From Candidatus Aminicenantes bacterium (GTDB lineage: Bacteria; Acidobacteriota; Aminicenantia; Aminicenantales; Aminicenantaceae), in NCBI GenBank assembly GCA_046483285.1, contig JAWODN010000121.1, positions 5,899 through 69,898 of the forward strand: DNA of 64,000 nt. Direction: 5' to 3'. Of this stretch, positions 1,969 to 29,865 are shown one piece after another. Positions within the stretch are counted from its first letter, which is position 1, and every line of letters starts with the position of its first letter. Under the pieces are notes generated by a model. The model was not told where the DNA came from and ran no database searches. It saw only the letters and a program-made list of their open reading frames with translations. The position numbers and the translations under genes are program-made.

Positions 1969-3177
1969 ATGCCTTATTTTCACTGCCGGTTGGCGTCTGA
2001 AGACGGACGGGTTTTTTCTGAATCCCATTTTGCCCCTTCATATGATTCTTGCCGCAAGTATTTTGAATCCGGAGGCTTCTGTATTCTTTCCATCAAAAGG
2101 GACTGGAAAAAAGTTGACGTGTCTTTTTCTTTGGGCCGCAGGAGGATTAAGCCCAAAGATTTTGTGATGTTCAACCAGGAACTGGTGGCTCTTATAAACG
2201 CCGGCTATCCCATTTTGAAAAGTCTCCAGATCATCATAAACCGGTCTAAGGATCCGCACTGGAAAGAAATTTTAATGGAAGTGGAAAATGAAGTGAGAAG
2301 CGGAAAATCCCTTTCCGAAGCCTTTTCGGAAAGCCGCATAAAATTTCCCACGGTTTATATCGCGTCGCTTATAGCCGGAGAGAGGGGAGGCAATCTTCCC
2401 GAGACCATCAAACGTTATATCGTTTATGAAAAAGTGATCAGGCGAACCCGGGAGCGGGTTAAAACCGCTTTGACCTATCCTGTTTTGCTTTTGCTGCTCT
2501 CCGGAGTTCTTTTGGGTGTTCTGGTTGGATTCATCATTCCCCGGTTTTCGGATTTTTATTCGGATTTCGGTACAGAGCTTCCTTTTATCACCCGCAGCCT
2601 GGTTTCTTTTTCAGTATTTATCCGGGATAATTTTCCATTTTTGCTGGGGTTTCTTTTGGTTATGGCGATCGGATATTTTCAAATGAAGAGAAAAGAAGCC
2701 GCCACGGTTTTTTTGGACCGCTGGAAATTGAAAATCCCCATCATGCGGCCGGTATGGATAGAATCCTCCGTGGCCCTTTTCAGCCGGACGTTAAGCCTGC
2801 TGTTGGGAGGCGGAATATCCTTGCTGCAATCGGTGGGAATTGCCCGGAAGGCGGTTCCCAATGAATATCTGGTTCATAACATGAAAGATCTCCCCGAATA
2901 CATAAAAAACGGGGAAAATCTGTCAGAAGCGGTGGATAAAGCCGGGTTTTTCACGCCGCTTGCTCTGGACATGATCCGGATTGGGGAGCGGTCCGCCAAT
3001 TTGGAAGGAATGCTTGCGGATATCGCCCAGGTTCATGATGAAAGTGTTCAAGAGAGAGTCGACCGGCTGGTGGCCCTTATCGAACCGGCCATCATTATTT
3101 TCATGGGATTTATTGTGGCCGTAATGCTTCTTTCGGTATACCTTCCCATATTCAATATAATCAGTGTGGCGAGATGA
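1969..3177 (+). CDS. pilC: type IV pilus / T2SS inner-membrane platform protein (GspF/PilC family)
   Basis: 402 aa. N-terminus FHCRLASEDGRVFSESHFAPSYDSCRKYFESGGFCILSIK matches the conserved GspF/PilC N-terminal pattern. Two T2SSF-type repeats with interspersed TM helices. The stop overlaps the pilB start (ATGA). Confidence 0.85.
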   Translation: MPYFHCRLASEDGRVFSESHFAPSYDSCRKYFESGGFCILSIKRDWKKVDVSFSLGRRRIKPKDFVMFNQELVALINAGYPILKSLQIIINRSKDPHWKEILMEVENEVRSGKSLSEAFSESRIKFPTVYIASLIAGERGGNLPETIKRYIVYEKVIRRTRERVKTALTYPVLLLLLSGVLLGVLVGFIIPRFSDFYSDFGTELPFITRSLVSFSVFIRDNFPFLLGFLLVMAIGYFQMKRKEAATVFLDRWKLKIPIMRPVWIESSVALFSRTLSLLLGGGISLLQSVGIARKAVPNEYLVHNMKDLPEYIKNGENLSEAVDKAGFFTPLALDMIRIGERSANLEGMLADIAQVHDESVQERVDRLVALIEPAIIIFMGFIVAVMLLSVYLPIFNIISVAR

Positions 3178-4793
3178 CCATGAATAAACCAAACCATAAT
3201 AAAGAGGAAGTTTTAAGAGAAGAAGAAAAAGTAAAAAAACTGGCCCAGAGGTACAAGGTTCCGTATGTGGATCTCTCTGATTTGGCTCTGGACCGGGACC
3301 TGGTTCAATCTTTTCCGGTAGATTTCCTGCACCGGTCCAATTTTATTCCTTTAAAGGAAGAAAACGGCATTGTGAAGGTCGCGGTGGCCGACCCTTCCGA
3401 TATATCCATTATTGATTCCATTGAATCTTTTCTTGGGAAAAAAGTGAAAGTGTACGCGGCGTCCAAGCCGGCCATCCATGAAGCCCTGCGGAGAAGCGAA
3501 ACCGCACTGCAGGTCCTCAAGACCGCCACAGAAGGATATTCGGTTCAGGTCCTGGACCGGGAAGAGCCGGATAAGGATGAGAGCATCTCGGTGGAAAGGC
3601 TGGCCGACCAGGACGGTTCCATCATCAAGCTGGTCAATTCCATCATTTTCACAGCTGTTCAGAAGTGGGCGTCGGATATTCATATCGAATCCCGGGAAGA
3701 TTCGCTTATGGTTAAATACAGGACCGATGGAGTCTTGAACCGGGCCATGGAGCCTATCGATCAGAAATTTCAATCCCCCATTATTTCCCGTATCAAAGTG
3801 ATGTCCGATTTGGACATTGCGGAACGGCGGGTCCCTCAAGATGGGAAATTCCGTTTGAGAATCAAAGATAAAACCATTGATTTCCGGGTTTCCATCATGC
3901 CGAGTATTTATGGTGAAGATGCGGTGATTCGGATTCTGGACAAAGAAATGATCACGGAGGCTATTTCCGAGCTGAAATTGGAAATGCTCGGTTTTTCTGA
4001 TGAAGTTCTGGAAAAAACACAGCGATATATTCATGTCCCTTATGGAATGCTGTTGGTGACCGGGCCGACCGGAAGCGGGAAAACCACTACTCTTTATGCG
4101 GCTTTGACTGAAATCAATTCACCTGAGGATAAAATTGTCACCATTGAGGATCCCGTGGAATATCAAATCCAGGGAATCACCCAGATTCCGGTCAATGAAA
4201 AAAAGGGATTGACTTTCGCGCGGGGGCTGCGTTCTATTTTAAGGCATGACCCGGATAAAATCATGGTGGGGGAAATTCGTGACCCGGAGACGGCCCAGAT
4301 CGCCATTCAATCGGCGCTGACCGGTCATTTGGTCTTCACCACCGTGCATGCCAATAACGTGTTCGACGTGATCAGCCGCTTTCTGCACATGGGCGTTGAT
4401 CCATACAGCTTTATTTCCGCGCTGAATGGAATCCTGGCCCAGAGGCTGGTGCGGGTGCTGTGCCGCCACTGCCGGGAAAAAACCAGCTACGATGATCATA
4501 TTCTGCGTGATGCGGGATTGGATCCGGATCAATACCGGAATCACGTTTTTTATGAGGCTCAGGGATGTGAAGAATGTCATTTTAAAGGATATCAAGGCCG
4601 GACGGCCATTGCTGAGTTCCTGGAGCTTTCGGACAAAATCCGGGAGATGATTCTGGATAAAAAACCTTTATCCGAAGTGAGGAAGCAGGCCCGGGCCGAG
4701 GGGATGAATTCTTTGCGGCATTTCGGATTGAGCAAAGTGGTTGACGGAATAACCAGCTTGAAAGAGTTAAACAAGGTCACTTTTGTGGAATGA
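3174..4793 (+). CDS. pilB: type IV pilus assembly ATPase (GspE/PilB family)
   Basis: 539 aa. T2SSE_N-like N-terminal domain, Walker A LLVTGPTGSGKTTTLYA, Asp box, His box, and a tetracysteine cluster CRHCREK...CEEC. Confidence 0.9.
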   Translation: MTMNKPNHNKEEVLREEEKVKKLAQRYKVPYVDLSDLALDRDLVQSFPVDFLHRSNFIPLKEENGIVKVAVADPSDISIIDSIESFLGKKVKVYAASKPAIHEALRRSETALQVLKTATEGYSVQVLDREEPDKDESISVERLADQDGSIIKLVNSIIFTAVQKWASDIHIESREDSLMVKYRTDGVLNRAMEPIDQKFQSPIISRIKVMSDLDIAERRVPQDGKFRLRIKDKTIDFRVSIMPSIYGEDAVIRILDKEMITEAISELKLEMLGFSDEVLEKTQRYIHVPYGMLLVTGPTGSGKTTTLYAALTEINSPEDKIVTIEDPVEYQIQGITQIPVNEKKGLTFARGLRSILRHDPDKIMVGEIRDPETAQIAIQSALTGHLVFTTVHANNVFDVISRFLHMGVDPYSFISALNGILAQRLVRVLCRHCREKTSYDDHILRDAGLDPDQYRNHVFYEAQGCEECHFKGYQGRTAIAEFLELSDKIREMILDKKPLSEVRKQARAEGMNSLRHFGLSKVVDGITSLKELNKVTFVE

Positions 4794-5755
4794 AGCGGAA
4801 AAACGAAAATAAAATCAAATCCCGGCGGGAAAAAGCTTTTGAATTTTTTACCAAGAGGCCGGTTCTGCCACTGGCGTTTCAAATCACGGAAAGATATGTC
4901 AGCGGCGCGGCTTTCTCCCCCAAGGAAAAAAAGGTCAAGTCCCATTTTATTTCACCTCTCCCCCCAGGGACATTAAGAGCCTCCTTTTTTAAAAAAAATA
5001 TCCGGACGCTTCGTCCGCTTTTGTCGGCGATCAAGCAAGGACAAGAAAAACTGGCGGCCCCGTCCGGCAAAACGGCTTTGCTGCTTCCGGAGATCACTCA
5101 AAAAACATTCAGTTTCTCTTTTGAGACCCTGCCTTTTTCTCAGGGAGAAAGGGAACAGCTGATCCGCTTCCGCATAAAAAAACAGCTGCCCCTGATTCCG
5201 GATGATGCCAGAATATCTTATGATACTTTCCTTAATTCGGCTTCCGGGGGCACCAGGGTGGTGGCGTCAGCGGCTTGTTGTGACGTCATAAGGGAATATG
5301 AAGCCCTTTTCGAAGAGGCCGGATTCAAGGTGAAGTTGATATCAACACCGGTTATGAGCTTGATAAATTTGCTGCGTTCGGAAGCCCCGTCGGATTTTTT
5401 ATTGCTGAATGTGGAGGAAGAAGCTTTTTCGCTGGCAGCTGTGGTCCAGGGAGAGTTCGCATTGTACCGGCAAAAATCTTTCGGGATGGAAAGCCCCGGC
5501 GAAGATGAAACAAGAGGGAAAATCAACACGGTTGTGCAGGAGATTGAAAACACTCTGAATTTCATTGAAGACCGGGAAAAAAGAAAAATGGATGCTTTTT
5601 GGGTGAGAAACGGCGGTGATGACAGGGAAGAATTTTTAAAAACATTGGCTCCACTGGTCCGGATTCCAACCAAAAACATAACGGAATGCCGCCGGTTGGA
5701 TCCCGGACTTTCCAGCCGGGAACACTTGGCGCCCCTGATAGGCCAGTTGGTATGA
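4790..5755 (+). CDS. pilM: PilM-like cytoplasmic actin-fold pilus assembly protein (real start may lie downstream of the listed one)
   Basis: Position between pilB and a PilN-like gene. No TM segment. Start overlaps the pilB stop (ATGA), stop overlaps the pilN start (ATGA). The first ~80 aa are low-complexity, so the true start is uncertain. Confidence 0.5.
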   Translation: MKRKNENKIKSRREKAFEFFTKRPVLPLAFQITERYVSGAAFSPKEKKVKSHFISPLPPGTLRASFFKKNIRTLRPLLSAIKQGQEKLAAPSGKTALLLPEITQKTFSFSFETLPFSQGEREQLIRFRIKKQLPLIPDDARISYDTFLNSASGGTRVVASAACCDVIREYEALFEEAGFKVKLISTPVMSLINLLRSEAPSDFLLLNVEEEAFSLAAVVQGEFALYRQKSFGMESPGEDETRGKINTVVQEIENTLNFIEDREKRKMDAFWVRNGGDDREEFLKTLAPLVRIPTKNITECRRLDPGLSSREHLAPLIGQLV

Positions 5756-6315
5756 TAAAACAACCGGTTAATATCAATCTGGCCACTCATCCGGTCCGCA
5801 ACCGCCGCTTGTTTTTTTCCCTGCTGGGGATCGGCGTGTTCCTTTTTTTAATCACGGCCGGGGCGGCCGCCCATGTTTTTTTGGTTTATCACAGTAAAAA
5901 TGAGGGAGCCCAAAGAGCTTCGGAACGCCTGGAAGACCGCATGAGGCAGGTCCAAAGGGAGGAAATAAGGATCACCGCCCGGATTGAGCAAATCAAGGCC
6001 GATGAAGGATTAAGGCTGGACGTTTACAATGATTTAATTTTTCAAAAAAGTTTTTCCTGGATTGAATTATTAAACGCGATGGAAGAAGCCCTTCCCGGCT
6101 CTTGTTACATGTCGTCTCTTTCTCCCTTGCAGAAAAAAGAAAATCAGCTTGAAATCAGATGTCATGTCGCTTATCCATCTTTGGACAGCTTGTTGGATTT
6201 TATATCCAATCTCCATAAAATCGGGTTTAAAAACATTCAGGTCAAAAATGAAACCGAGGGCGGCGGCGGGTATAAGATCTCGGAAATGTCGTTAAGATAT
6301 GAAAGAATTCATTAG
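5752..6315 (+). CDS. pilN: PilN-like bitopic pilus alignment protein
   Basis: Start re-assigned to the ATG at 5752 (overlapping the pilM TGA) instead of the track start at 5686. N-terminus MIKQPVNINLATHPVRNRRLFF matches the PilN INLLP/R motif. A single TM (LLGIGVFLFLITAGAAAHVF) and coiled coil follow. Confidence 0.7.
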   Translation: MIKQPVNINLATHPVRNRRLFFSLLGIGVFLFLITAGAAAHVFLVYHSKNEGAQRASERLEDRMRQVQREEIRITARIEQIKADEGLRLDVYNDLIFQKSFSWIELLNAMEEALPGSCYMSSLSPLQKKENQLEIRCHVAYPSLDSLLDFISNLHKIGFKNIQVKNETEGGGGYKISEMSLRYERIH

Positions 6316-6859
6316 TCTTCTCACCCGAAGCGAGAGACGAATCATCCTCATTATAGCCGCGGTCTTGGCGGCGGCGGCGGTTTTTTATTTTTTCATCGCC
6401 CTGCCCCAGCGCAGCGCCTATTTTTCCCGTCAAATGGAAATACGCTTCCAGAAAAAGGAATATCAGAAATTGGAAACGCAGCAGGCCGATAAAAAGAAAG
6501 AACTGGCTGACTGGATTCAGGCTCAGGAGGAGATAAATGAACTCAGGTTGAGATATTTCTACCCCCGGCAGGACGGGTACCAGAATATCCGGCAGGACCT
6601 CGGCCGCATTTTTCAAAAAACAGGGGTGAGCGTGGACCGGATCCGGTATGATTATGTCGAAGCCAAGGATGCTGACATTCAGAAAGTGATCATAAATTTT
6701 GAGGTTTCCGGGAGATATGATCATCTCAGAGGCTTTTTACATGAAATTGAGACCTTTCCCAAATTTATCTGGGTGGAAAGAATCAATTTTGGGGATACGG
6801 AAGAGGCTTCCCGGAAGTTAAGTTTGAATTTAACCCTGGCGGCTTATAATGCGCTGTAA
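6299..6859 (+). CDS. pilO: PilO-like bitopic pilus alignment protein
   Basis: 186 aa. N-terminal TM (RRIILIIAAVLAAAAVFYFFIAL), coiled coil, C-terminal alpha/beta region. Overlaps pilN by 17 nt. Confidence 0.6.
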   Translation: MKEFISLLTRSERRIILIIAAVLAAAAVFYFFIALPQRSAYFSRQMEIRFQKKEYQKLETQQADKKKELADWIQAQEEINELRLRYFYPRQDGYQNIRQDLGRIFQKTGVSVDRIRYDYVEAKDADIQKVIINFEVSGRYDHLRGFLHEIETFPKFIWVERINFGDTEEASRKLSLNLTLAAYNAL

Positions 6860-7346
6860 GATAATGATTTTTATGGGAATTCTGGCCTTGGGAGGGGCGG
6901 TGTTTTCCTTGACGCAGGGACAGGATGACCACAGAAAAACAGAGAAATTACTGCGGACGGATCTGTTGAATTTTGAGTCCGCTCCTCTTAAGAAATCCCG
7001 CAGAAACATATTCATTCCTTCTCCGGGTGATGAATCAGTCCGGGGACAGAAGCATACCGCGGAGCGGCCGGAAATTTCCGTGCTGCCGGGTGATCTTGAA
7101 TCTCTGGAAGAGGAGAGGCCCGGAACCTCCCTTTTGCCGAGAATTGATTTAAGGTATATCGGGTATGTGGGAAATAAAGAAAGAAAAGTCGCTCTCATTT
7201 TACAGGGTGGAGAAGCCCTGGCTGTCCAGCAGGAAGACATTCTTCCGGATGGGGTTAAAATCATACGGATCGCTGAAGAAGAAATTGAAGTTGAGCTGCG
7301 GGGAGGCGAAAACGTCAAGTTTTTTCTCGAGGGAGAAAAAGAATGA
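6849..7346 (+). CDS. pilP: PilP-like periplasmic (lipo)protein
   Basis: 165 aa. Signal peptide MIFMGILALGGAVFSLTQG. RNIFIPS resembles the RDPF motif of PilP. C-terminal beta domain LRYIGYV...ALIL..G..V..GD.LPDGVKIIRI resembles the PilP/GspC HR domain. The stop overlaps the pilQ ATG. Confidence 0.55.
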   Translation: MRCKIMIFMGILALGGAVFSLTQGQDDHRKTEKLLRTDLLNFESAPLKKSRRNIFIPSPGDESVRGQKHTAERPEISVLPGDLESLEEERPGTSLLPRIDLRYIGYVGNKERKVALILQGGEALAVQQEDILPDGVKIIRIAEEEIEVELRGGENVKFFLEGEKE

Positions 7347-9526
7347 GAAAAACATGGACATTATTGTTGATTCTGATATTGATGTGGGGATGTTCCACAT
7401 TTAACCGCAGTTATAAATTGGGCACCGACGCCGCCATGAATAAGGATTGGGATGAAGCCGTCCGATTTTATGAGAAAGCGGTTCTTCAGGACCCTGACAA
7501 TTCGGTCTACCGGCTGGCATTGTTTCGGGCCGCCATGGCGGCCCGAAACCAGCATCTCAGCCGGGCCCGCCGGCTGGCCGCGCAGGACCGCACGGATGAA
7601 GCCATGCAAGCGTACCAAAAGGCCCTCGCTTACGACCCGGAAAACCCCCTTCTGCAAAAGGAAATCAAGGAACTTCAGCAGAAACCTGAAGAAGCGCCTG
7701 AGGCGAAAAAAGACATGTACGAACCCCCTCTCCAGCTTCAGGTCGGCCGGGAGGATATCGTGCTGAAATTCACCCGCGACGCCAGCCTGCGTTCCATTTT
7801 CTTGGCTCTTGGGAAATATGCGGGAATCAATGTCATTTTTGATGCCCAGTTCCGGGATCAACCGTTTTCGGTTGATTTTTCAGGCATGAGTTTTTTAAGG
7901 GCTTTGGAAACCCTGTGCGTGGCCACCCAAAATTTTCACCGGGTTTTGGATGAAAAAACCATTCTGATCGTTCCCGACAGCCCCCAAAACCGGAGCCGGC
8001 ATGAAATCACAGCCATGAAAACCTACTATCTGTCCTATATTGATGCCCAGGAACTGCAGGCCCGTTTAAACGCCATGCTGAGAACACCTTCCGCCATGCC
8101 TCAGCTCACCGTGGATAAGGTTCTGAATTCCGTTACGGTTAAGAGCACTCCTGAAGTTCTCAAGCAGGCCGACGGTTTGATTCGATCCTGGGATAAGCCC
8201 AGGGGAGAGATCCTGCTGGACCTGGAGATCATGGAAGTCTCCCGGAGGAAGATGAAGCAGCTCGGCCTGGACTTGGATTCCCATGTTTTGGGGTTCCAAT
8301 ACGGCGGTGAGGGCACAACAGGCGGATCGGATTCCGACAAGGGGTGGATTGATTTCGATCAGATCGACCTGTCCAAAACCGGAAATTATCAGTTAAGCCT
8401 TCCGGTCGGTTTGCTCCGTTTCCTGGAAACGGATGCCGACACCAAGATCATCGCGCAGCCGCGGCTGCGTGGGATCGAAGGGGAAAAGATGGAATACCTG
8501 GTGGGGGATGAAGTGCCCATTCCCCAAACGACGTTTTCGCCCATGGCCGCCGGGGGAGTCAGCACCCAGCCGATCACTTCATTCCAGTACAAACCGGTGG
8601 GGATCGAAATGTACATCACCCCCCGGATTCATTTCGATGGAGAAGTCACCCTGGAAATGGAATTGAAGATCAAGGCCCTGGGCGGTTCGGGGTATGGAGA
8701 CCTCCCCATCATCACCACCCGGGAGGTCAAAAACATCATGCGGCTGAAAGAGGGGGAAACCAATCTTCTGGCCGGCCTGCTTAAAGATGAAGAACGGAAA
8801 ACGCTGAAAGGAATCGCGGGAATCAAACATATTCCTCTCCTGGGCCGTCTTTTTTCCAACACAGACTCTGAAGTGTTGCAGACCGATGTGGTCATGACCA
8901 TTACGCCTTTCATCTTACAGGATAAGTCATTGCGGGAAGCGGATTTGCGGCCCATTTGGATGGGTATGGAAAGCGTATCCGCCGGAACGGGAGCCTCCGG
9001 CCGTGACCCGGACAGCCCGGAAATGATTTATCCGGGCAGCGAGATGGAACGTCTTCCCCGCCGGCTTCCAGACCAGGCCATGGAAAGAGAAGAGGAAACT
9101 GCGGAGGGAGCCAATGAGCTGATTTTAAGCCCCCCTTCCTATCAGGGGCCGGAGAACCGGAATCTGCGGATGACCGTCAATCTTCAGACTGCCGAAGACA
9201 TTCAGAATTTTTCCATGACGGTGTCTTTTGATCCGCAAATCCTGGAACTGCAGAGCGTGAAACAGGGAAATATTATTCAGCAATTGGGAGAAAGCCCCTC
9301 CGTACTCGAAAATATCGACAATACCGCCGGTGTGTTCAACTTCGGATTTTCAAGTTCTCAGGTGGATTCGGGCGTCAAAGGCTCCGGACTGCTGGTGACA
9401 TTTATATTCAAGCCGCTGCAGGGAGGGGAAACCACGGTTTCCATTGTCAATTCCAACGCCTCCAGTGACACGGGAACCCCGGTGTCCTTTTCTGCCAATG
9501 ACAGCCGCATCATCATCCGGGAGTGA
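7343..9526 (+). CDS. pilQ: secretin (PilQ/GspD family) with N-terminal lipoprotein-TPR module and C-terminal cohesin-like module
   Basis: 727 aa. Lipobox LILMWGC. About 100 aa of TPR-like repeats (YEKAVLQDPDN..., YQKALAYDPEN). N0/N1-like domains. Secretin C-domain GETNLLAGLLKDEERKTLKGIAGIKHIPLLGRLFSNTDSEVLQTDVVMTITPFIL. An extra ~145-aa C-terminal beta module: FSMTVSFDPQILELQSVKQGNII...GSGLLVTFIFKPLQGGETTVSI. Confidence 0.85.
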   Translation: MRKTWTLLLILILMWGCSTFNRSYKLGTDAAMNKDWDEAVRFYEKAVLQDPDNSVYRLALFRAAMAARNQHLSRARRLAAQDRTDEAMQAYQKALAYDPENPLLQKEIKELQQKPEEAPEAKKDMYEPPLQLQVGREDIVLKFTRDASLRSIFLALGKYAGINVIFDAQFRDQPFSVDFSGMSFLRALETLCVATQNFHRVLDEKTILIVPDSPQNRSRHEITAMKTYYLSYIDAQELQARLNAMLRTPSAMPQLTVDKVLNSVTVKSTPEVLKQADGLIRSWDKPRGEILLDLEIMEVSRRKMKQLGLDLDSHVLGFQYGGEGTTGGSDSDKGWIDFDQIDLSKTGNYQLSLPVGLLRFLETDADTKIIAQPRLRGIEGEKMEYLVGDEVPIPQTTFSPMAAGGVSTQPITSFQYKPVGIEMYITPRIHFDGEVTLEMELKIKALGGSGYGDLPIITTREVKNIMRLKEGETNLLAGLLKDEERKTLKGIAGIKHIPLLGRLFSNTDSEVLQTDVVMTITPFILQDKSLREADLRPIWMGMESVSAGTGASGRDPDSPEMIYPGSEMERLPRRLPDQAMEREEETAEGANELILSPPSYQGPENRNLRMTVNLQTAEDIQNFSMTVSFDPQILELQSVKQGNIIQQLGESPSVLENIDNTAGVFNFGFSSSQVDSGVKGSGLLVTFIFKPLQGGETTVSIVNSNASSDTGTPVSFSANDSRIIIRE

Positions 9527-9540
9527 GGCTCTGGTTTATC

Positions 9541-9900
9541 CGGTCTGACCTATACCTTAGCCTGAATTATTCATAAAAAAATTGCGATGTTTTTGCCAAT
9601 CTTTCCGTAACTGCGATATTCATCATTTTTATAAAAAGAACAAACATTACGTTTTTCCTTGCCGGCCTTTCATTATGATCGCAATTTTTTTACCCTTCGG
9701 GACGACATGCCGCTTTGTCATTGCGAGGCTTGCGCAAGCAAGCCGTGGCAATCCCTTTCTGCCTCGTGAAAGCGGAACCCGCCGCCCATACGAGGCAGTC
9801 AGGGATCCCTCGGTGCTTCGCACCGCGGGATGACATTGAATTAAAGAATTGTCGTCGTCTGCGGCAATCCCGGCCCGTGAATAAGCCAGACAAGTCTGAA
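9541..9900. repeat. copy of the mosaic intergenic repeat family: 9-bp-repeat remnant, module A (TTAGCCTGAnnTATTCATAAAAAAATnGCGATG), hairpin unit, module D
   Basis: 9561-9595 matches 13826-13858, 29369-29400 and 58276-58310. 9700-9835 matches the 155-bp tandem unit at 14058. 9836-9895 (ACATTGAATTAAAGAATTGTCGTCGTCTGCGGCAATCCCGGCCC) recurs at 29700-29750 and 58550-58600. Confidence 0.8.
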
Positions 9901-10128
9901 CTATACCTTAGAAAATCGAATCCTCGTGGCCATGGGAGCGGGAGATGGATCGCCGCCACGCGGATGTCCCCGGCGAGAACATCCGCTCCGATTCCGGCTT
10001 CGCTCTCCTCTCCTGCGGAGAGGAACCATGCCCGCTCAGCCTTCATACGGGCCGGCTTATCCATCATCCCGCCCCCATGGCAAAAGTTCAAAATCCGCGC
10101 CAATCGCGGCACGGCTGGCATATCAGGA

Positions 10129-11856: not shown

Positions 11857-11895
11857 TGATAACCTCCTTTTTGGCTTTTGCCAAAATTACTTATT

Positions 11896-12140
11896 CGTTC
11901 GAAAATAACAAAAATAGTCCATTTCGTCTGTCTGGTCTGTCTGGTTTATCTGGTCTATCTCGTTTATCTGGTTTATCTGGTCTGTCTGGTTTATCTGGTT
12001 TGAAAAGGGCGGGAAAGGCGAGAAAGGCGAGAAAAGCAGAAGGCCTCTGAAAAAATTAAACATGAACATTTTCATATCTTGCCTGTGGCGAAGCCCCCAT
12101 GGCAGCCGTTCGGAAGTGACACTCATGGCCGGCCCGCTCA
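11896..12140. repeat. mosaic repeat copy: 5' module (CGAAAATAACAAAAATAGTCCATTTCGTCT), eight 9-bp tandem units (GTYTRTCTG, 11926-11997), module E (GGCGAGAAAGGCGAGAAAAGCAGAAGGCCTCTGAAAAAATTAAACATGAACATTTTCAT)
   Basis: The same module order recurs at 38190-38340 (about 95% identity for module E). The 9-bp repeats match those at 13761-13823 and 18951-19004. Lies immediately upstream of the TTG start of the C69 peptidase gene. Confidence 0.8.
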
Positions 12141-12176
12141 TCATCCAAACTTATATACCTCGATGGCAGACTTGTG

Positions 12177-13541
12177 TCAATATTCTTCATTCGCTTCTAT
12201 TTTTATAATCCGGGAGGTGGTCTTTGTGACCCGGAAATCATGGGAAACCGGAAAGCCCGGAATCCAGACAATCCGGTCTTGAGAAAGGATCACCGGATAC
12301 CGGTCTCTCAATTCGGGGGCTATGTTCCGGCTCCGGAATATTTCTTTAAGCGGTTTTCGCCCGGGCGCTCTCAGAGGGCGGTAGCGGTCTCCCCGGCGGC
12401 GGTTGCGCACCCGCAGGGGGAATGCGATTTTGGCGGCATCCAGCCAGGCATGTTTCCGGTCGTCGAATTCCAGCTTGTCCGGCCCCGGATTCTTTCTTTT
12501 TTCCAAATCCAAACTCATGGCGGCTTCGGGAATCCGCAAAGGTGATGTTCCTTCCCATTTCATATCGAAGCTCAGGGAATACGGTTTCGGTCTCAGCGTG
12601 AGGAGGCCCCGGATGTTTTTTATGACCAGGCCTTTTTCCAGGGGGAACATCCGGTCTTTTCCCAGCTGAAGAAGAATGTCCGCGTCCTCGAATGTCAGTC
12701 CTCTGACACCCCCCCGCAAACGGCGGTAAAATTCCCGGATGACCCGGCGGCGGAGAGCCAAGGGTATGCCGTCCAATCCGGATGTTCTCAGGGCCGGCCG
12801 GCCTTGAAAGTCACTTTCCACTGATTGAAAGACATCCATAGCCTGTTTATGCATATAATCATCTTCGGCCTGGATGATTTCAGCCATCCGGCCCAGCCGG
12901 GCTTCAATCCGGGGGTAGACCTCCTTTTTTAGAAGGGGCATCACGCGGTGGCGGATCCGGCTTCGGAGAAAACGCGGATCGATGTTGGTCTCATCCACAC
13001 GGTACTCCATTCCCTTCCGGTCAAGATAAGCCAACACCTCTTCCCGGCTCACTCCAATCAGGGGACGCACGATGCGGCCCCGGCGCGGTTGAATCCCTCC
13101 CAGTCCCCTCATGCCGGCGCCCCGGAAAAGATGCATCAGGACCGTTTCGGCCTGGTCGTTCAGGGTGTGACCGACGGCGATTTTCGCCGCACCGGACTTT
13201 CGGGCGGTTTCTTCCAAAAAAGCATACCGGCGTTTCCGGCAGGCTTCTTCCAGATTCATTTTATGTTCACGGGCGTAAAGGCGGATGTCTTCCCGCCGGC
13301 ACTCACAGGCAAGCGAAAACCGCCGGGCGAGAGACTGGACGAATTTTTCATCTCCTCCGGCGGATTTCCGGAGTTGGTGGTTGAAGTGGGCCACTGTCAG
13401 CTCCAGCTTCCAGGATAAATCCATCAGGGCCAGCAGAAGAGCGACCGAATCCGGACCCCCGGAGCACGCCGCCGCCACCTTGTCCCCCGGACTCAACAAT
13501 TGATGACGGCGGATGGTTTTCTCAATCTTTGACAGAAACAT
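12177..13541 (-). CDS. tilS: tRNA(Ile)-lysidine synthetase
   Basis: 454 aa. N-terminal PP-loop SPGDKVAAACSGGPDSVALLLAL (SGGxDS). Length and C-terminal domain are typical of TilS. Confidence 0.8.
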   Translation of the reverse strand: MFLSKIEKTIRRHQLLSPGDKVAAACSGGPDSVALLLALMDLSWKLELTVAHFNHQLRKSAGGDEKFVQSLARRFSLACECRREDIRLYAREHKMNLEEACRKRRYAFLEETARKSGAAKIAVGHTLNDQAETVLMHLFRGAGMRGLGGIQPRRGRIVRPLIGVSREEVLAYLDRKGMEYRVDETNIDPRFLRSRIRHRVMPLLKKEVYPRIEARLGRMAEIIQAEDDYMHKQAMDVFQSVESDFQGRPALRTSGLDGIPLALRRRVIREFYRRLRGGVRGLTFEDADILLQLGKDRMFPLEKGLVIKNIRGLLTLRPKPYSLSFDMKWEGTSPLRIPEAAMSLDLEKRKNPGPDKLEFDDRKHAWLDAAKIAFPLRVRNRRRGDRYRPLRAPGRKPLKEIFRSRNIAPELRDRYPVILSQDRIVWIPGFPVSHDFRVTKTTSRIIKIEANEEY

Positions 13542-13629
13542 CTTATCCGGATTATATCAAAATCCTGAATGGAAGACACATGCGGGAAGATGATCCGTGC
13601 CCCTGCTCATTGTCCAGGCTGAGTGAGGA

Positions 13630-13658
13630 TTGACTTTGCTTCCCAATCTGACTATACT
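13630..13658 (+). promoter_or_regulatory. candidate sigma70 promoter for the tRNA (TTGACT-N17-TATACT)
   Basis: TTGACT at 13630-13635 and TATACT at 13653-13658, with a 17-nt spacer, about 25 nt upstream of the tRNA 5' end. Confidence 0.4.
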
Positions 13659-13682
13659 TGACCTCTGAAAAATTACCGTCAT

Positions 13683-13756
13683 GGCGGTGTAGCTCAGTCG
13701 GTTAGAGCATACGGCTCATATCCGTAGCGTCGGGGGTTCGAATCCCTCCACCGCCA
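13683..13756 (+). tRNA. tRNA with CAU anticodon (elongator tRNA-Met or lysidine-type tRNA-Ile2)
   Basis: Cloverleaf GGCGGTG/CACCGCC acceptor stem, D-arm TAGCTCAGTCGGTTAGAGCA, anticodon stem TACGG/CCGTA with loop CTCATAT, T-arm GGTTCGAATCC. The fully paired 1-72 pair argues against an initiator. CCA is not encoded. Confidence 0.85.
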
Positions 13757-13760
13757 TTCA

Positions 13761-13823
13761 GTTTATCTTGTTTGTCTAGTTTGTCTTGTTTGTCTTGTTT
13801 GTCTTGTTTATCTAGTTTGTTTA
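13761..13823. repeat. seven 9-bp tandem units (GTTTRTCTW) directly abutting the tRNA 3' end
   Basis: gtttatctt gtttgtcta gtttgtctt gtttgtctt gtttgtctt gtttatcta gtttgttta. Same 9-bp family as 11926-11997 and 18951-19004. Confidence 0.85.
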
Positions 13824-14057
13824 GCCTGACCTATTCATAAAAAAATGGCGATGACACCGTCCCCTTTGGGCGGGCCTGTCCCACCGCATCTGACTATCTC
13901 TTGTCATTCATGGTCACCCCGGGCGTTACTATGTCATCACGAGCGCCCCCTTGTCATCCCGGGAGAAGCGAAGGACCCCAGACTGCTTCGAATTGGCAAC
14001 CCATTGTTCATACGTCCTGGCGAAAGCACTCACAGATCCCTTTTCACTTCGCTCCCC
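13824..14057. repeat. mosaic repeat modules A and G (MITE-like palindromic unit GTCATCC...GGGACGAC)
   Basis: 13826-13858 is module A. 13936-14057 matches 29581-29700 and, reverse-complemented, 60700-60790. Its ends are an inverted repeat (GTCATCCTGAGCGGAGCGA / TCGCTCCGCTCCTCGGGACGAC in the 29581 copy). Confidence 0.75.
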
Positions 14058-14590
14058 GGGACGACATGCCCCTTGTCATTGCGAGGCTTGCGTCAGCAAG
14101 CCGTGGCAATCCCTTCCTGCCTGGTGAAAGCGGAACCCCCCGCCCATACCAGTCAGGGATCCCTCGGTGCTTCGCACCGCGGGATGACACACCCAAAGGC
14201 ACGGCGTGCCCCGGGACGACATGCCCCTTGTCATTGCGAGGCTTGCGTCAGCAAGCCGTGGCAATCCCTTCTTGCCTGGTGAAAGCGGAACCCCCCGCCC
14301 ATACCAGTCAGGGATCCCTCGGTGCTTCGCACCGCGGGATGACACACCCAAAGGCACGGCGTGCCCCGGGACGACAAGCCCCTTGTCATTGCGAGGCTTG
14401 CGTCAGCAAGCCGTGGCAATCCCTTCCTGCCTGGTGAAAGCGGAACCCCCCGCCCATACCAGGCAGGGATCCCTCGGTGCTTCGCACCGCGGGATGACAC
14501 ACCCAAAGGCACGGCGTGCCCTGGGACGACAAGCCCCTTGTCATTGCGAGGCTTGCGTCAGCAAGCCGTGGCAATCCCTTCCTGCCTCGT
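14058..14590. repeat. tandem array of a 155-bp hairpin-rich unit (3 full copies plus 1 truncated)
   Basis: GGGACGACATGCCCC recurs at 14058, 14213, 14368 and 14523, an exact 155-bp period with >95% identity. Each unit has an extended hairpin ATTGC-GA-GGCTTGC-GTCA-GCAAGCC-GTG-GCAAT and palindromes AGGGATCCCT, GGTGCTTCGCACC, GGCACGGCGTGCC. Single copies of the unit occur at 9700, 18700 (rc), 58415 and 60390-60660 (rc). Confidence 0.9.
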
Positions 14591-14685
14591 CTGAACCATC
14601 CGGATCCGGTACCGCTTTCTCTCTATAAAGCCGTCACGGATCCCTCATCACTACGTTTCTCAAGATGACATAGGGGCAACAAACG

Positions 14686-14724
14686 CAAGCAACGCAACAA
14701 ACGCAACAAACGCAAGCAACGCAA
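14686..14724. repeat. microsatellite (CAAACGCAAG/CAACGCAA units) at the 3' end of asnB
   Basis: gcaacaaacgcaagcaacgcaacaaacgcaacaaacgcaagcaacgcaa. Its reverse complement, a GCGTT-rich tract, is echoed at 18905-18945. Confidence 0.6.
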
Positions 14725-14732
14725 ATAAGGGG

Positions 14733-16643
14733 TCAGTCCAGGTAGTGATCTTTCCATATGGAAAAGACCAGCAGCGCCCAAATTTGATGACTGTTGTTCC
14801 GGGAGCCGTCAAGATGGCTGCGGATAAGGCGCTCCACCTCGCCGGTCCGGAAATAACCGTCTTGTTTAATCCGGGCTGAATCCAGCCTCTCCAGCATCAG
14901 TTCTTTCAGTTCCTCCCGGAGCCAATGCTTGATGGGGATGCTGAATCCTTCTTTTTTCCGGTAGATGTTCTCCCGGGGCAGGAGCCGCTCCATGGTTTTC
15001 TTGAGAAACCATTTGGTGGTCAGCCCCTTCAATTTATACCGCCCCGGCAGCCGGAACATGAATTCCACCACTTTGTGGTCGAGCAGCGGGACCCGCGTTT
15101 CCAGGGAAGCCGCCATGCTCATCCGGTCCACTTTGACCAGGATATCGTCGATCAAGTAGGTGTGCAGGTCCAGATAAAGTTCACCGTTCTGAGAGTCAAA
15201 GCTCTCCGCCTTTTGAAAAAAAGCCGGAAAAGGTGGGGTGTGATACAGGGGGCTGCCGCCGTTTAAGGATTCAAGGAATTCCGGGGTGTATAAGCGGTTC
15301 TTCGCCTGGGGAGAGAGAAATGTCATCCACCGGAAATGACGGAGCCGGGGATCCAATTCCAAACCCTGGCCGTAGCGTTGAAGCTTGTTCCAGACCCCTT
15401 TTTTTCTGGGAGAAGGCGGCATGCGGCGGGCGATATGGGGCAGGAGGGCATTCACCGGAGAAAGCCACGGCGACCGGGCCAGCTTTTGAGCCTGATAATG
15501 TTCGTAGCCGCCGCAGACTTCATCCCCCCCGTCTCCGGAAAGGATCACTTTAACGTGCTTTCGGGCCATCCGGGACACTAAATAGGTGGGGAAAATGGAG
15601 AAATCACCGAAAGGTTCATCCAGGTGGCGGATGAGTTTTTCGGTCAGTTCCAGGGCGTCGGGCCGGATGACGAATTCTTCGTGGTCGGTGGCGAATTTCC
15701 GGGCCACCCGGCGGGCGTGGCCCAATTCGTTGTATGAGCTGTCTTCGAACCCGATGGAAAAAGTTTTAAGAGGGGAGACACCCAGGTCCCGCATCAATCC
15801 CACTACGGCGGAGGAATCGATGCCGCCGCTGAGAAAAGCCCCCAGAGGGACATCACTGATCAATCTCATTTGAACCGATTCTTTCAGCAGGGCATAAAAT
15901 TCATCCTGCAGGGAATCAAGCGGGCGGAGGGGATCCGGATTATTTTGTTCAGGAGTGATGTCCCAGTAACGGCGGATATCCATTCGTCCCTGCCGGTACT
16001 GGAGGAGGCATCCGGCCGGCAGCTTGTGGATGTCAGTGAAGATGGAGCGGGGCGCCGGTATGTATTCCAACGTGAGAAAAAGATCCAGCGCCCGGGGATC
16101 GATATCCCGGGGCATTCCGGGGTAGGCCAGAACGGCTTTAAGCTCAGACCCGAACACCAGGGTCTTGTCCTGAAGCCGGGTATAATAAAGCGGTTTGATT
16201 CCCAGGCGGTCACGAAAAAGAAAAAGGCTTTTTGTCCGGTCATCCCATATAGCGGCTGCGAACATGCCCCGCAGTTTCTTGACCATATCCCGGCCCCATT
16301 CTTCATAGGCGTGCAAAATGGTTTCCGTATCCGTGCGGGTCTTGAAGCGGTGGCCCCGTCCGGCCAGTTCCTGTTTGAGTTCGGGAAAATTGTAAACTTC
16401 CCCGTTGTAAGCGATCCGGATGGTTTCATCTTCATTGGAAATGGGCTGGTGCCCGGTTTCCAGGTCGATGATGCTCAAGCGCCTGGCCCCCAGGGCGGCT
16501 CCCTGTCCGGCATACAAGCCTTGATCGTCCGGCCCGCGGTGGGTGATGGTCCGGCACATCGTCTCCAGGCGGTCCGCACTGGTTTTTGTCCTTGAATCCG
16601 GGAGCGCGAATCCGCAGATGCCGCACATGGTCACTCCGGCCAA
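14733..16643 (-). CDS. asnB: asparagine synthetase (glutamine-hydrolysing) family amidotransferase
   Basis: 636 aa. N-terminal Cys nucleophile MCGICGF. PP-loop SGGIDSS. Typical AsnB length. Confidence 0.85.
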   Translation of the reverse strand: MAGVTMCGICGFALPDSRTKTSADRLETMCRTITHRGPDDQGLYAGQGAALGARRLSIIDLETGHQPISNEDETIRIAYNGEVYNFPELKQELAGRGHRFKTRTDTETILHAYEEWGRDMVKKLRGMFAAAIWDDRTKSLFLFRDRLGIKPLYYTRLQDKTLVFGSELKAVLAYPGMPRDIDPRALDLFLTLEYIPAPRSIFTDIHKLPAGCLLQYRQGRMDIRRYWDITPEQNNPDPLRPLDSLQDEFYALLKESVQMRLISDVPLGAFLSGGIDSSAVVGLMRDLGVSPLKTFSIGFEDSSYNELGHARRVARKFATDHEEFVIRPDALELTEKLIRHLDEPFGDFSIFPTYLVSRMARKHVKVILSGDGGDEVCGGYEHYQAQKLARSPWLSPVNALLPHIARRMPPSPRKKGVWNKLQRYGQGLELDPRLRHFRWMTFLSPQAKNRLYTPEFLESLNGGSPLYHTPPFPAFFQKAESFDSQNGELYLDLHTYLIDDILVKVDRMSMAASLETRVPLLDHKVVEFMFRLPGRYKLKGLTTKWFLKKTMERLLPRENIYRKKEGFSIPIKHWLREELKELMLERLDSARIKQDGYFRTGEVERLIRSHLDGSRNNSHQIWALLVFSIWKDHYLD

Positions 16644-26749: not shown

Positions 26750-27573
26750 GGCGACACCTGGGTGGTGACTTTTCCGGTCCGGCGGTCATAGGCATACTCC
26801 CGCCCGTCCAAGTCCATGGGGAGGGAATCAATCCAGCCGTCCTGCACCAGGCGGCCGAGTTTGTCCGGATAATATCCGAAAGCCCTTTTGTATTCTTCCA
26901 GAAGGCCTTCCAGTTTTTGGATATCCATGGCCGCTTTGGTCCGGTAAAGATGATTGGAAGCGATATTTTTGACCCGCTCGCTTTCCGCATTCTGGTATAT
27001 ATCCATCCAGTTGTTCCAGGCTTCCTGATAATCCCCGGTTTTAAAGACGGCGTTGGCGAACAGCCGCCTGGCCATATCCGGAGCGTCTTCAACTTCCATG
27101 GCTTTCCGGTAGTATTTTCGGGCCAGGGAATAATCCTTTAAATTCATCTGGGCGTAATGGCCGGCCTGCCAGGGAAAGAGCCATTCCTTGGGGTTGTTTT
27201 TCAGCCCCAGGTCCAGAATAGAAAAAGCCGCTTCGTAGTCTCCGGCATCATAGACGGCGATCATGGCGCCGATTTGATAGGGATCCAGATAGCGGGGGTC
27301 CAGCTCGGCGATGATGGAATAGACATGCTCCAGGTGGTCAAAGCGGTCGTCCACGGCTTTGTCGCTGAAGTACTGAATGGACCAGATATAGATCAGGTCG
27401 GCAAGAAGGGTGTTGTATCCCAGGGCGGCGTACTGGAGGTATTGTCCGGAAGGTATATATATGATGGAAGATCCGGGTTGGGTGTTCCGGGGAACGGCGT
27501 CGGATTTAAGCTTGAGAAGAGAGAACAGCCCTATGCACAGAACCATGCCCCAAATGAAGACGCTTTTTTTCAT
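26737..27573 (-). CDS. exported helical-repeat (TPR-like) protein of unknown function; start reassigned
   Basis: Start moved to the ATG at 27571-27573 (MKKSVFIWGMVLCIGLFSLLKL signal peptide), 5 nt downstream of the permease stop. The track start at 27744 would overlap the upstream gene. Follows the ABC pair and precedes pilD. Confidence 0.4.
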   Translation of the reverse strand: MKKSVFIWGMVLCIGLFSLLKLKSDAVPRNTQPGSSIIYIPSGQYLQYAALGYNTLLADLIYIWSIQYFSDKAVDDRFDHLEHVYSIIAELDPRYLDPYQIGAMIAVYDAGDYEAAFSILDLGLKNNPKEWLFPWQAGHYAQMNLKDYSLARKYYRKAMEVEDAPDMARRLFANAVFKTGDYQEAWNNWMDIYQNAESERVKNIASNHLYRTKAAMDIQKLEGLLEEYKRAFGYYPDKLGRLVQDGWIDSLPMDLDGREYAYDRRTGKVTTQVSPWER

Positions 27574-27577
27574 GATT

Positions 27578-28342
27578 TCAAATAAAGTCCCTTTTCCGGA
27601 AAATCGCCATGGCCAGGAGCAGCAGAAAGGCGGTGTAAACCACTCCGTATCCCAGGGAGGGCAGGAGGATTCCAAAGGGGATGTCCAGTCCGTGCACCAC
27701 TTCCGTCCGGAAATTAAAATTTTCCAGGTCCGGCAGAAGGACATAAAGCACCTGAACGGCCGCCTTGCCCGGTCCCGGATCCATTTTTTCCAGAAAGGCT
27801 TTCATGCCCCAGGAGAGGTGCCCGATCAGATAAAACGCCAGCGCGTAGATGGAGCTCAAGATAGGAGTTGAAAAGCAGGAAAACATCATAGCGACGGCGG
27901 TGATCAATCCCAATTCGATAAAAATAAACAGCAGGGCCGTCAGCATGGGAAACCCGATGGAAGCTCCGTGGAGCCAGGCGATAATAAAAAAGATAAGGCT
28001 CATCAAAGCCACCATGACCAGCAGGGTCGCGGTCAGACCGAAAAATTTTCCCAGCAGGAATTGATAGCGGTGAATGGGCGTCGACAGCAGAGTGTACACA
28101 GTCCGTTTGTCGATTTCTTTGTACACCAATCCGGTTCCCATCAAAATCGCCATCAGAACACCCACGATGGAAATGGAACCCAGCCCCACATCCAGAATGA
28201 TGCGGACCCGGTCTCCCACCGTGATCAACGCCAGGAAGCGGGAAAACACCAGCCCGGCGACGGCAAAAAACAGAAGCAGATAGAGAATCCGGTCCCGGAT
28301 CGCTTCCCGGAAGGTGTTTAAGGCAATCGCTGTTATTTTCAT
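27578..28342 (-). CDS. ABC-2 family transporter permease
   Basis: 254 aa, 6 TM helices. Start overlaps the ATPase stop (ATGA). N-terminus MKITAIALNTFREAIRDRILYLLLFF is typical of ABC-2 permeases. Confidence 0.65.
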   Translation of the reverse strand: MKITAIALNTFREAIRDRILYLLLFFAVAGLVFSRFLALITVGDRVRIILDVGLGSISIVGVLMAILMGTGLVYKEIDKRTVYTLLSTPIHRYQFLLGKFFGLTATLLVMVALMSLIFFIIAWLHGASIGFPMLTALLFIFIELGLITAVAMMFSCFSTPILSSIYALAFYLIGHLSWGMKAFLEKMDPGPGKAAVQVLYVLLPDLENFNFRTEVVHGLDIPFGILLPSLGYGVVYTAFLLLLAMAIFRKRDFI

Positions 28343-29280: not shown

Positions 29281-29339
29281 CTTGATGATTTTAACGGATC
29301 ATAATTCAGATTCATTATACGAAAATTTAATTCTATTTC

Positions 29340-29765
29340 AAATCAACCTGCTAATCCTGACCCATTACTTAGCCTGACCTATTCATAAAAAAATGGCGAT
29401 GTTTTCATAATTTCTTTTTTTCCTAATATTTGCATGATTTTTTTGAGAATTCAATCTTGAACGTTTGTCATTATCCATATTTTCAATTTATTCGCCATTT
29501 TTTTACCCTTCGGGCGGGCCGGATCTCACCGCATCTGCCGGGTTGCGGCTCGTCGCAGTGAAGTGACGACCTTTCATTAATTTAATGTCATCCTGAGCGG
29601 AGCGAAGGATCCCGGACTGCTTCTAATTGGCAACCCATTGTCCATATGGCCTGGCGAAAGCACTCACAGATCCCTCGTCGCTCCGCTCCTCGGGACGACA
29701 TTGAATTAAAGAATTGTCGTCGTCTGCGGCAATCCCGGCCCATTCATCATCCAGGTTTGAAAATC
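29340..29765. repeat. mosaic repeat copy (module A, module F rc, module G, module D)
   Basis: 29369-29400 is module A. 29515-29580 (GGGCGGGCCGGATCTCACCGCATCTGCCGGGTTGCGGCTCGTCGCAGTGAAGTGACGACC) is the reverse complement of 38395-38510 and identical to the rc of 60795-60860. 29581-29700 is module G. 29700-29750 is module D. Confidence 0.8.
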
Positions 29766-29865
29766 CTGTGTTCGCAGCCCAAATATTTCTTGACCTGAAG
29801 AAGATTTTGATATAAAAAAAGAAAGAATGGCTTCGGGTTACGGGAAAACCCGCAAGGAGGGCAAA

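Follow-up and report, generated by a model that had tools for sequence, protein, structure and literature searches.

What kind of DNA is the tandem array that lies in the spacer between a tRNA gene and asnB in a Candidatus Aminicenantes genome, and how did it arise? The array was found in a 64,000-nucleotide (nt) stretch of contig JAWODN010000121.1 (assembly GCA_046483285.1, positions 5,899 to 69,898), which was analyzed as a whole and is called the window here; all coordinates below refer to it. An initial annotation, made from the sequence alone, described an exact 155-bp tandem array of about 3.4 copies directly downstream of a tRNA(CAU), and proposed a recombination hotspot or a structured noncoding RNA array. 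Our analysis indicates, with a probability of roughly 0.75, that the array arose locally and, in evolutionary terms, recently by the tandem amplification of clustered hairpins of the repetitive extragenic palindrome (REP) type, of the CGTC/TGTC class and with compound stems.

To begin with the array itself, Tandem Repeats Finder reported a single array at 14054 to 14587 with a period of 155, 98% matches, no indels, and a score of 1033. The 155-nt unit is repeated head to tail in 3.4 copies over 14054 to 14590, with unit starts at 14058, 14213, 14368, and 14523, so that the period and copy number given earlier were recovered, although the array is near-exact rather than exact. Compared with the reference copy at 14058, the copy at 14213 has one difference and that at 14368 has three, and the fourth (14523) follows the reference for 68 nt, with two differences, before diverging. 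A 155-nt unit repeated at 98% excludes chance as the source of the array. An open reading frame (ORF) of 178 amino acids spans the array, and since a search of a large protein collection gave no homolog for it at E ≤ 1e-3, the region is noncoding. The array begins 300 nt beyond the 3' end of the tRNA (13757), and therefore not directly downstream of it, and ends 143 nt from the asnB stop codon (14733).

Next, the unit was folded on each strand as single-stranded DNA (ssDNA), and z scores were calculated against dinucleotide shuffles. The whole-unit fold gave z scores of -4.0 (+ strand) and -4.5 (- strand), and four hairpins, which we call Z, W, Y, and X, were recognized in each unit. Three of the four, namely the + strand hairpin Z and the - strand hairpins Y and X, are headed by an unpaired TGTC tag, followed by A or G and then T. 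Z reads TGTC / ATTGC-GA-GGCTTGC-GTCA-GCAAGCC-GTG-GCAAT / CCC (ssDNA fold, -11.3 kcal/mol) and Y reads TGTC / ATCCCGCGGTGC-GAA-GCACCGAGGGAT / CCC (-11.6 kcal/mol), with a GCGAAGC mini-hairpin within it on the - strand; both thus share the form TGTC / AT-stem...stem-AT / CCC. X, which reads TGTC / GTCCC-GG-GGCAC-GCC-GTGCC-TTT-GGGT, stands head to tail with Y1 and tag to tag with Z2. W is an untagged hairpin, CCTGCCTGGT-GAAA-GCGG-AACCCC-CCGC-CCAT-ACCAGTCAGG, and forms the spacer between Z and Y. In the first unit, the modules lie at 14074 to 14113 (Z1, +), 14116 to 14158 (W1), 14156 to 14189 (Y1, -), and 14191 to 14221 (X1, -); in the second, at 14229 to 14268 (Z2, +), 14271 to 14313 (W2), 14311 to 14344 (Y2, -), and 14346 to 14376 (X2, -); and in the third, at 14384 to 14423 (Z3, +), 14426 to 14468 (W3), 14466 to 14499 (Y3, -), and 14501 to 14531 (X3, -). 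The hairpin and three palindromes listed in the initial annotation are all present, but AGGGATCCCT is the junction of W and Y and GGTGCTTCGCACC is the inner stem of Y, so that both belong to the longer Y hairpin or its border; the W hairpin (14116 to 14158 in the first unit) and the TGTC tags had been overlooked.

The edges of the array were also informative. The left edge is a tag-to-tag junction with a variant module, Y' (TGTCGTCCCGGGGAGCGAAGTGAAAAGGGATCTG..., 14026 to 14066, - strand), whose tag end, GGGACGACA, supplies the opening 9 nt of unit 1 and which occupies the place held by Y and X in the later units. Y' is also found at 29661 to 29700 and 60673 to 60712, and the stretch from 13952 to 14067 has 87% identity to both 29586 to 29701 and 60673 to 60787. 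The right edge does not fall at a tag; it lies inside the left arm of W, 12 nt past the last Z (Z4, 14539 to 14578, + strand), at CTGCCTCGT / CTGAACC. This terminal partial copy retains the CTGCCTCGT variant, as the dispersed copies do, whereas the full array copies have CTGCCTGGT. Among the substitutions within the array, a C->T change in W2 (unit position 60) turns a C-G pair into T.G, a T->G change in W3 (unit position 96) turns a C.T mismatch of the stem into a C-G pair, and X3 carries one change, CCCGGG to CCCAGG on the - strand.

BLAST of the unit against the window recovered the single copies reported earlier near 9700, 18700, 58415, and 60390 to 60660, at 84 to 92% identity. They correspond to the tag-Z-W-Y part of the unit at 9699 to 9835 (+ strand, 92%), a whole unit at 18714 to 18870 (- strand, 87%), a copy in which the Y arm is swapped for the Y' variant at 58417 to 58553 (+ strand, 87%), and a copy at 60392 to 60532 (- strand, 84%); unit fragments were found at 60550 to 60712 and 29661 to 29700. 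The Z-W-Y part behaves as an inverted doublet with its tags outward, and in each of its seven copies, three of them within the array and four dispersed, the tags stand 116 to 120 nt apart. At the Z tags of these seven doublets and of the terminal Z4, an opposing TGTCGT tag stands 8 to 9 nt away. A larger cluster at 60383 to 60720 (- strand) has the order X-Y-W-Z-Z-Z-X-Y', and its three head-to-tail Z modules have a common outer stem and differing inner hairpins (GCTTGC/GCAAGC versus CGGCC/GGCCG). The earlier view of a structured element that is both tandemly amplified and dispersed is therefore well founded, given the array, its dispersed copies, and the folds of their hairpins.

We then compared the intergenic spacers all against all by BLAST. 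Within the window, 31% of the intergenic DNA is repeated, versus 0.35% of the coding DNA, and repeats cover 69% of the tRNA-asnB spacer. Common modules in shuffled order and orientation fill the spacers at 9527 to 10128, 11857 to 12176, 13758 to 14732, 18587 to 19552, 29281 to 30225, 38336 to 38643, 58225 to 58672, and 60047 to 61333. The head motif TGTCRTNNCGNG occurs 28 times, always in intergenic DNA, where 0.69 would be expected, and none of 100 shuffles reached 28; the density of TGTC[AG]T is 5.08 per kb in intergenic and 0.78 per kb in coding DNA. The dispersed copies occupy convergent, divergent, and codirectional spacers in either orientation. Since the same modules are found in at least seven other intergenic regions, most of them with no tRNA nearby, and since the array stands 300 nt from the tRNA, the link between array and tRNA drawn in the initial annotation is not supported.

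To which class of elements do these hairpins belong? Two superfamilies of REPs, one with a GTAG and one with a CGTC tag, have been distinguished (Di Nocera, De Gregorio & Rocco 2013, BMC Genomics 14:522; PMC3733652). According to that survey, the CGTC REPs have an unpaired CGTC tag, often TGTC (or CCTC), a stem of 8 to 9 bp with A and T in its first two positions, a loop of 4 to 5 nt, and an unpaired 3-nt tail close to CCA. The survey describes them as mostly head-head dimers (tags outside) without a dedicated transposase and as forming clusters in the mosaic regions of Neisseria; clusters are rare within the class, and bulged variants were probably missed by the authors' search. The CGTC class is also mentioned in a later survey of Y1/HUH transposases, where no enzyme is assigned to it. 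In the window, the Z, Y, X, and Y' modules all start with TGTC; the Z and Y stems open with A and T (ATTGC...GCAAT and ATCCC...GGGAT); the Z-W-Y doublets are head-head dimers with tags outside in seven of seven copies; and the modules are multicopy and intergenic, as given by the densities and head counts above. Judged by these sequence features, the modules Z, Y, and X are members of the CGTC/TGTC-tagged REP superfamily, an assignment at the level of the superfamily and not of one of its four CGTC families; the supplementary files of PMC3733652 held no consensus strings matching the modules. The likeness extends to a short C-rich tail, to dimers spaced by tens of nucleotides, to a high-copy, strictly intergenic distribution with no linked transposase, and to viral relatives of the Y arm that have a canonical 8-bp stem and 4-nt loop. 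The modules differ from the published set in their longer, compound stems (5 bp on the outside, then an internal loop or mismatch, and an inner stem of 6 to 7 bp that varies among copies and organisms), in the 3-nt loop of Y and the CCC tail, in their host phylum (Aminicenantes-like Acidobacteriota, outside the five listed in the survey), and in that clusters, which the survey calls rare for CGTC REPs, are the rule here.

In architecture, the spacers as a whole come closest to two known kinds of cluster. One is that of the Neisseria intergenic mosaic elements (NIMEs), in which dRS3 hairpins flank 50- to 150-bp RS repeats in dynamic arrays (Bentley et al. 2007, PMC1797815). Both systems combine short palindromic hairpins of the CGTC type (dRS3 is CGTC-1) with repeat families of 50 to 150 bp in long intergenic mosaics, and the Neisseria arrays vary in length, have been proposed as recombination substrates, and adjoin pilus and surface-protein genes. 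Unlike NIMEs, in which different RS elements follow one another, the array described here repeats a single composite unit almost perfectly in tandem, and no dRS3-targeting phage or recombinase was seen. The dRS3 consensus ATTCCCN8GGGAAT had no match in the window with up to one mismatch allowed, and the likeness is therefore one of analogy, not of membership. The other is found in Escherichia coli, where the bacterial interspersed mosaic elements (BIMEs) of the BIME-2 type are REP pairs reiterated in tandem. They resemble our array in having two REP types in alternating orientation with fixed linkers and a tandem composite unit between convergent or codirectional genes, but the E. coli elements have a GTAG tag and a REP-associated tyrosine transposase (RAYT, TnpA-REP), whereas the modules studied here have a TGTC tag, with no RAYT known for them or visible in the window. 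The GTAG REP/REPIN system, in which a GT[AG]G tag goes with a flanked single-copy RAYT (Y1 transposase) gene, does not fit either, with TGTC as the tag and no Y1_Tnp domain or other transposase among about 49 ORFs of the window. The pneumococcal BOX element (boxA-boxB(n)-boxC) is likewise a modular intergenic repeat with an internal module that varies in tandem copy number, although it has defined terminal modules and no similarity in sequence or tag. In this genome, the modules colonize intergenic DNA along with other short modules and build mosaic spacers that resemble BIMEs and NIMEs.

How, then, could one such cluster have become an array? Copies within the array differ by 1% or less, versus 8 to 16% for the dispersed copies, so that, measured against the dispersal, the amplification is recent. 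Two Z-bearing segments may once have stood about 155 nt apart in direct orientation, and unequal homologous recombination or replication slippage between them would have generated four Z copies, with the 68-nt terminal partial copy marking the extent of the original homology. As repeated DNA, the array would in turn offer a substrate for homologous recombination. The weakest step of our reading concerns function: the array is probably without a dedicated one. REPs of E. coli are obstacles to transcriptional read-through and to 3' exonucleases, and a stable block of hairpins between the convergent tRNA and asnB genes may act in the same way. A barrier role by analogy with those REPs is possible because no intrinsic terminator was detected in the tRNA-asnB spacer between the two convergent genes.

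Several observations weigh against this reading. The stems of X and Y' open with G-T, not A-T, and their G forms a wobble pair (G.T) with the T that closes the stem. Owing to compound stems, Z (5 bp, an internal loop, and 7 bp, with a 4-nt loop) and Y (5 bp, a mismatch, and 6 bp, with a 3-nt loop) depart from the published metrics of 8 to 9 bp and 4 to 5 nt, and both end in CCC instead of the published CCA, which was seen in a Helicobacter canis prophage dimer. The mechanism of amplification is deduced from the anatomy of the array, and no second strain or close relative was found. Moreover, two of the four substitutions in the array keep or improve the W hairpin, which neutrality alone does not predict (n = 4); such changes are suggestive of selection on structure, in numbers too small to be weighed.

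The locus was also compared with its relatives. The closest AsnB sequences, at 53 to 67% identity, come from metagenome-assembled genomes of Candidatus Aminicenantes or Acidobacteriota, and shared genes have about 64 to 70% nucleotide identity; BLAST of the window against all relative loci compared gave nothing closer than about 70% nucleotide identity, no record matched the TilS or AsnB protein exactly, and no sequence of the same species was found. In the relatives that span the region, the gene order is PilY1, PilW, GspH, a 651-amino-acid protein, AsnB> <TilS <tRNA(CAU) <secretin, with short spacers and an AsnB-TilS gap of 7 to 345 nt. tRNA(CAU) lies beside tilS in nine relatives, in the <tRNA orientation in eight of them, where it is 40 to 250 nt upstream of tilS and co-oriented, and flipped in the ninth (L003). 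Because tRNA(CAU) is linked to tilS both in the window and in these nine relatives, its position suggests tRNA-Ile2, the substrate of TilS, rather than the elongator tRNA-Met of the ARAGORN label. In the window, in contrast, tilS is inverted and stands on the opposite side of the tRNA, and a peptidase C69 gene (10129 to 11856) is intercalated between tilS and the secretin gene. Each novel junction (9527 to 10128, 11857 to 12176, and 13758 to 14732) is filled with mosaic repeats, whereas no head motif of Z, Y, or X was found around the locus in the relatives, the sole related head being a single TGTCATTCCG in one of them (L001). Since the relatives are without head motifs and repeats occupy every new junction, the repeat load is lineage specific and coincides with local rearrangement, in which repeats as the cause and repeats as later colonizers are not separable.

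Modules of the same type were then sought beyond this lineage. The exact Z-module pattern gave no match in species-representative genomes, the whole spacer (13542 to 14732) matched only tRNAs in a plasmid collection, and full-text searches returned only coincidental primer matches for the module strings and no paper on intergenic repeats of Aminicenantes. A relaxed pattern, TGTCATTGCGAG-N(10-30)-GCAATCCCTT, was present at no fewer than 120 metagenome loci; among the matches listed, 99 distinct inner segments lay between the conserved flanks, and an inverted partner often followed 5 to 25 nt downstream. On one 1333-nt metagenome contig (L164), about nine Z-type modules share a single 470-nt spacer (540 to 1010), the first group on one strand and the remainder inverted, with a different inner hairpin in each; the arrangement resembles a NIME cluster and comes from an organism that is unrelated. 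A slightly shorter pattern ending in GCAATCC was found in at least 120 viral contigs. Five tailed-phage contigs from IMG/VR (L218, L223, L247, L288, and L313) carry 7 to 15 Z-type TGTC modules each, all on one strand. Two of these are assigned to tailed phages by their portal and terminase genes, L218 (IMGVR_UViG_3300022660_000530) with 15 modules and L247, which also has a major head protein gene, with 7; in both, the modules form head-to-tail runs between genes on the strand opposite to most long ORFs. The runs in phages comprise 2 to 5 Z-type modules between structural genes, with spacers of 10 to 12 nt and differing inner hairpins. The Y-type pattern occurred at 100 viral loci, and 65 of 114 Y-type viral modules show the canonical stem of 8 bp, typically closed by a loop of 4 nt (e.g., ATCCCGGC-GCAG-GCCGGGAT). 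A phage search with the 155-nt unit gave one REP-like match, in a Helicobacter canis prophage (L420, BK070055.1, 1500 to 1600), where a Z-type head-head dimer, TGTCATTGCGAG-CCTTGC-TT-GCAAGG-CGTGGCAAT-CCA ... GGATTGCTTCGGCTGCGCCTCGCAATGAC, is annotated within a "hypothetical protein" and four similar places occur in the same record.

For 99 independent Z-type modules, the folds of the two strands were compared. With RNA parameters, the tag strand has the better fold in 91 of the 99, and with DNA parameters in 95; G:T pairs number 23 on the tag strand versus 10 on the complement, an advantage that fits an element acting as a single strand. In cellular contigs, the orientation of the tag relative to codirectional genes is 33 to 33, with no bias, and because of this the idea of a simple sense-strand element of 3' untranslated regions was dropped.

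These observations bear on a first alternative, in which a putative recombinase, perhaps of the single-strand-specific HUH/Y1 type or of the IS110/Piv type, inserting or recombining repeatedly and site-specifically at the TGTC-tagged hairpins, would have made the array a true recombination hotspot. An IS110/Piv-type enzyme is used at dRS3 by neisserial filamentous phages, and dRS3/NIME arrays, into which phage integrate at dRS3, have been proposed to be hotspots of just this kind (Bentley et al., PMC1797815). The better fold of the tag strand and its excess of G:T pairs suggest recognition of a single strand, several phage contigs have all of their 7 to 15 modules on a single strand, and compared with nine relatives the locus is rearranged, with repeats at every new junction. 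However, Pfam searches found no Y1/HUH (Y1_Tnp), IS110, transposase, integrase, or cas families among the approximately 49 ORFs of the 64-kb window, which encode ordinary chromosomal proteins, and no recombinase or transposase (Y1/HUH, IS110, integrase) among 53 ORFs of six module-rich phage contigs, L218 and L247 included, where only housekeeping or phage structural families were returned. The right end of the array lies inside a W arm and not at a tag, no dedicated transposase is known for CGTC REPs, and unequal crossover equally predicts near-identical neighboring units. We therefore consider this alternative unlikely. The hotspot of the initial annotation is plausible, given a rearranged locus with repeats at its new junctions, but cause and effect are inseparable there. 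A broader version, to which we give similarly little credence, is that the TGTC-AT hairpins, with their conserved tag, outer stem, and internal loop and their variable inner hairpin, might be substrates of a putative single-strand-specific recombinase or nuclease carried between phyla by tailed phages, building hotspot arrays that reshuffle neighboring genes.

A second alternative, a structured noncoding RNA array into which transcription would read through from the tRNA promoter (or from asnB) and which would act in RNA processing, stability, or regulation, appears improbable. A promoter-like site lies upstream of the tRNA (TTGACT-17-TATACT, 13630 to 13658), no intrinsic terminator precedes asnB, the unit folds strongly, the W-stem substitutions keep pairing on the + strand, and many REPs have been argued in the REP literature to be transcribed. 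Nevertheless, Rfam at its gathering threshold returned only two tRNAs and nothing on the array, and a scan of 13760 to 14735 at E ≤ 5 gave one chance-level match (E = 1.3), so that the covariance-model search suggested earlier revealed no RNA family over the spacer. Because the modules of a unit face opposite ways, no single transcript carries all of them in the better-folding orientation, and any transcript would present some as the less stable complement. The dispersed copies, moreover, stand in convergent, divergent, and codirectional spacers in either orientation, and the 33-to-33 distribution of tags in cellular contigs argues in the same direction.

A third alternative, that the array consists of tandem insertions of a MITE (a miniature transposable element with inverted repeats) or of remnants of insertion sequence ends, is very improbable and was rejected for the MITE. 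The Z-W-Y part, of about 120 nt, is bounded by inverted TGTCAT...ATGACA ends, but these termini comprise just 6 nt, beyond which the arms are two distinct modules; target-site duplications were not seen (left flank ...GCCGCTT, right flank TTGAATT or CACCCAAAGG), the flanking modules differ between copies as in a mosaic and not a discrete element, and there is no transposase in the window. An assembly artefact (a wrong copy number or a chimeric join) or a CRISPR-like array can hardly account for the region, since 530 nt of tandem repeats are hard to assemble from short reads but the copies carry distinct substitutions in a consistent register between unique flanks, and whole 155-nt units repeat without unique spacers, the ground on which the initial annotation had also set CRISPR aside, and no cas domains are present.

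Overall, the array is best treated as repeat-cluster DNA and not as a gene, a CRISPR array, or a tRNA-linked island, and gene callers and repeat-sensitive assemblers should handle the spacer at 13758 to 14732 and its sister spacers accordingly. Compound-stem TGTC hairpins of the REP type and mosaics resembling NIMEs and BIMEs occur in this Aminicenantes-like lineage, whereas its sequenced relatives are without them, and the same type of module is common in environmental contigs and in tailed-phage genomes. The module-rich phage genomes, with their strict strand bias, offer a convenient place to study how CGTC REPs multiply. If a phage-carried recombinase were indeed involved, it would provide the orphan CGTC superfamily with a mechanism of mobilization and extend the NIME concept beyond Neisseria, and the reshuffled neighbors would in this case be the tRNA(CAU)/tilS/asnB locus and the type IV pilus cluster.

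The genes that frame the spacer were identified as proposed in the initial annotation. The tRNA with anticodon CAU lies at 13682 to 13757 on the + strand (ARAGORN; Rfam tRNA, 69.9 bits). tilS (12177 to 13541, - strand) encodes the Pfam domains ATP_bind_3 (PP-loop; 5e-50) and TilS_C (2.5e-17) and has 42% identity to the ortholog in one relative (L004), and asnB (14733 to 16643, - strand) encodes Asn_synthase (2e-105) and GATase_7, with a probable start at 16628 (MCGICGF...). Outside the array, the spacer contains extra TGTCAT heads at 13902, 13932, and 13952 and DNA common to 29586 and 60787 (13902 to 14025, + strand), and a degenerate TGTC-AT module (TGTCATCTTGAGAAACGTAGTGATGAGGGATCC, 14633 to 14670, - strand).

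A truncated copy of a different shared module (TTAGCCTGACCTATTCATAAAAAAATGGCGATGACA) lies at 13821 to 13856. Fuller copies of this separate module, of about 160 nt, are found at 9545 to 9701, 29357 to 29514, 58262 to 58419, and 60859 to 61004 (- strand). It starts with TTAGCCTGACCTATTCATAAAAAAATGGCGATG, ends with CGCCATTTTTTTACCCTTCGGG, and usually precedes a Z-W-Y doublet; its ends, which bear A7 and T7, are repeated in inverted orientation at a distance of about 100 nt.

Two arrays of 9-bp repeats, mutually inverted, bracket the tRNA-asnB spacer. The first (GTTTGTCTT, about 7 copies, 13760 to 13824, + strand) abuts the tRNA 3' end, and the second (GCAACAAAC, 5.4 copies, 14676 to 14724, - strand, where it reads GTTTGTTGC) abuts the asnB stop codon. 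Read in the sense of each gene, the tRNA and asnB are thus both trailed by a G/T-rich 9-mer array. Similar 9-mers in three other spacers, at 11926 to 12001, 18951 to 19003, and 38226 to 38250, lie upstream of - strand genes.

The gene content of the window includes type IV pilus, type II secretion, and cytochrome c assembly functions, RpoD, OtsAB, and a class I (Trp/Tyr-type) tRNA synthetase. Repeat-rich spacers flank a cluster similar to type IV pilus and type II secretion loci (1969 to 9526 and 19553 to 26749), with T2SSF, T2SSE, PilO, a secretin with a cohesin domain, GspH-like and PilW-like minor pilins, PilY1, and a prepilin peptidase. This proximity recalls the NIME arrays beside pilus and surface-protein genes in Neisseria and may be a coincidence. 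Directly upstream of asnB, with a 13-nt overlap, lies the gene for a 651-amino-acid protein with no Pfam domain (16631 to 18586, - strand), which neighbors asnB in the relatives as well, at 34 to 65% identity. Finally, the cumulative GC skew peaks near 28 kb and then drops (26000 to 30000, approximately), which could reflect a replication-related switch or just the pattern of gene orientation.

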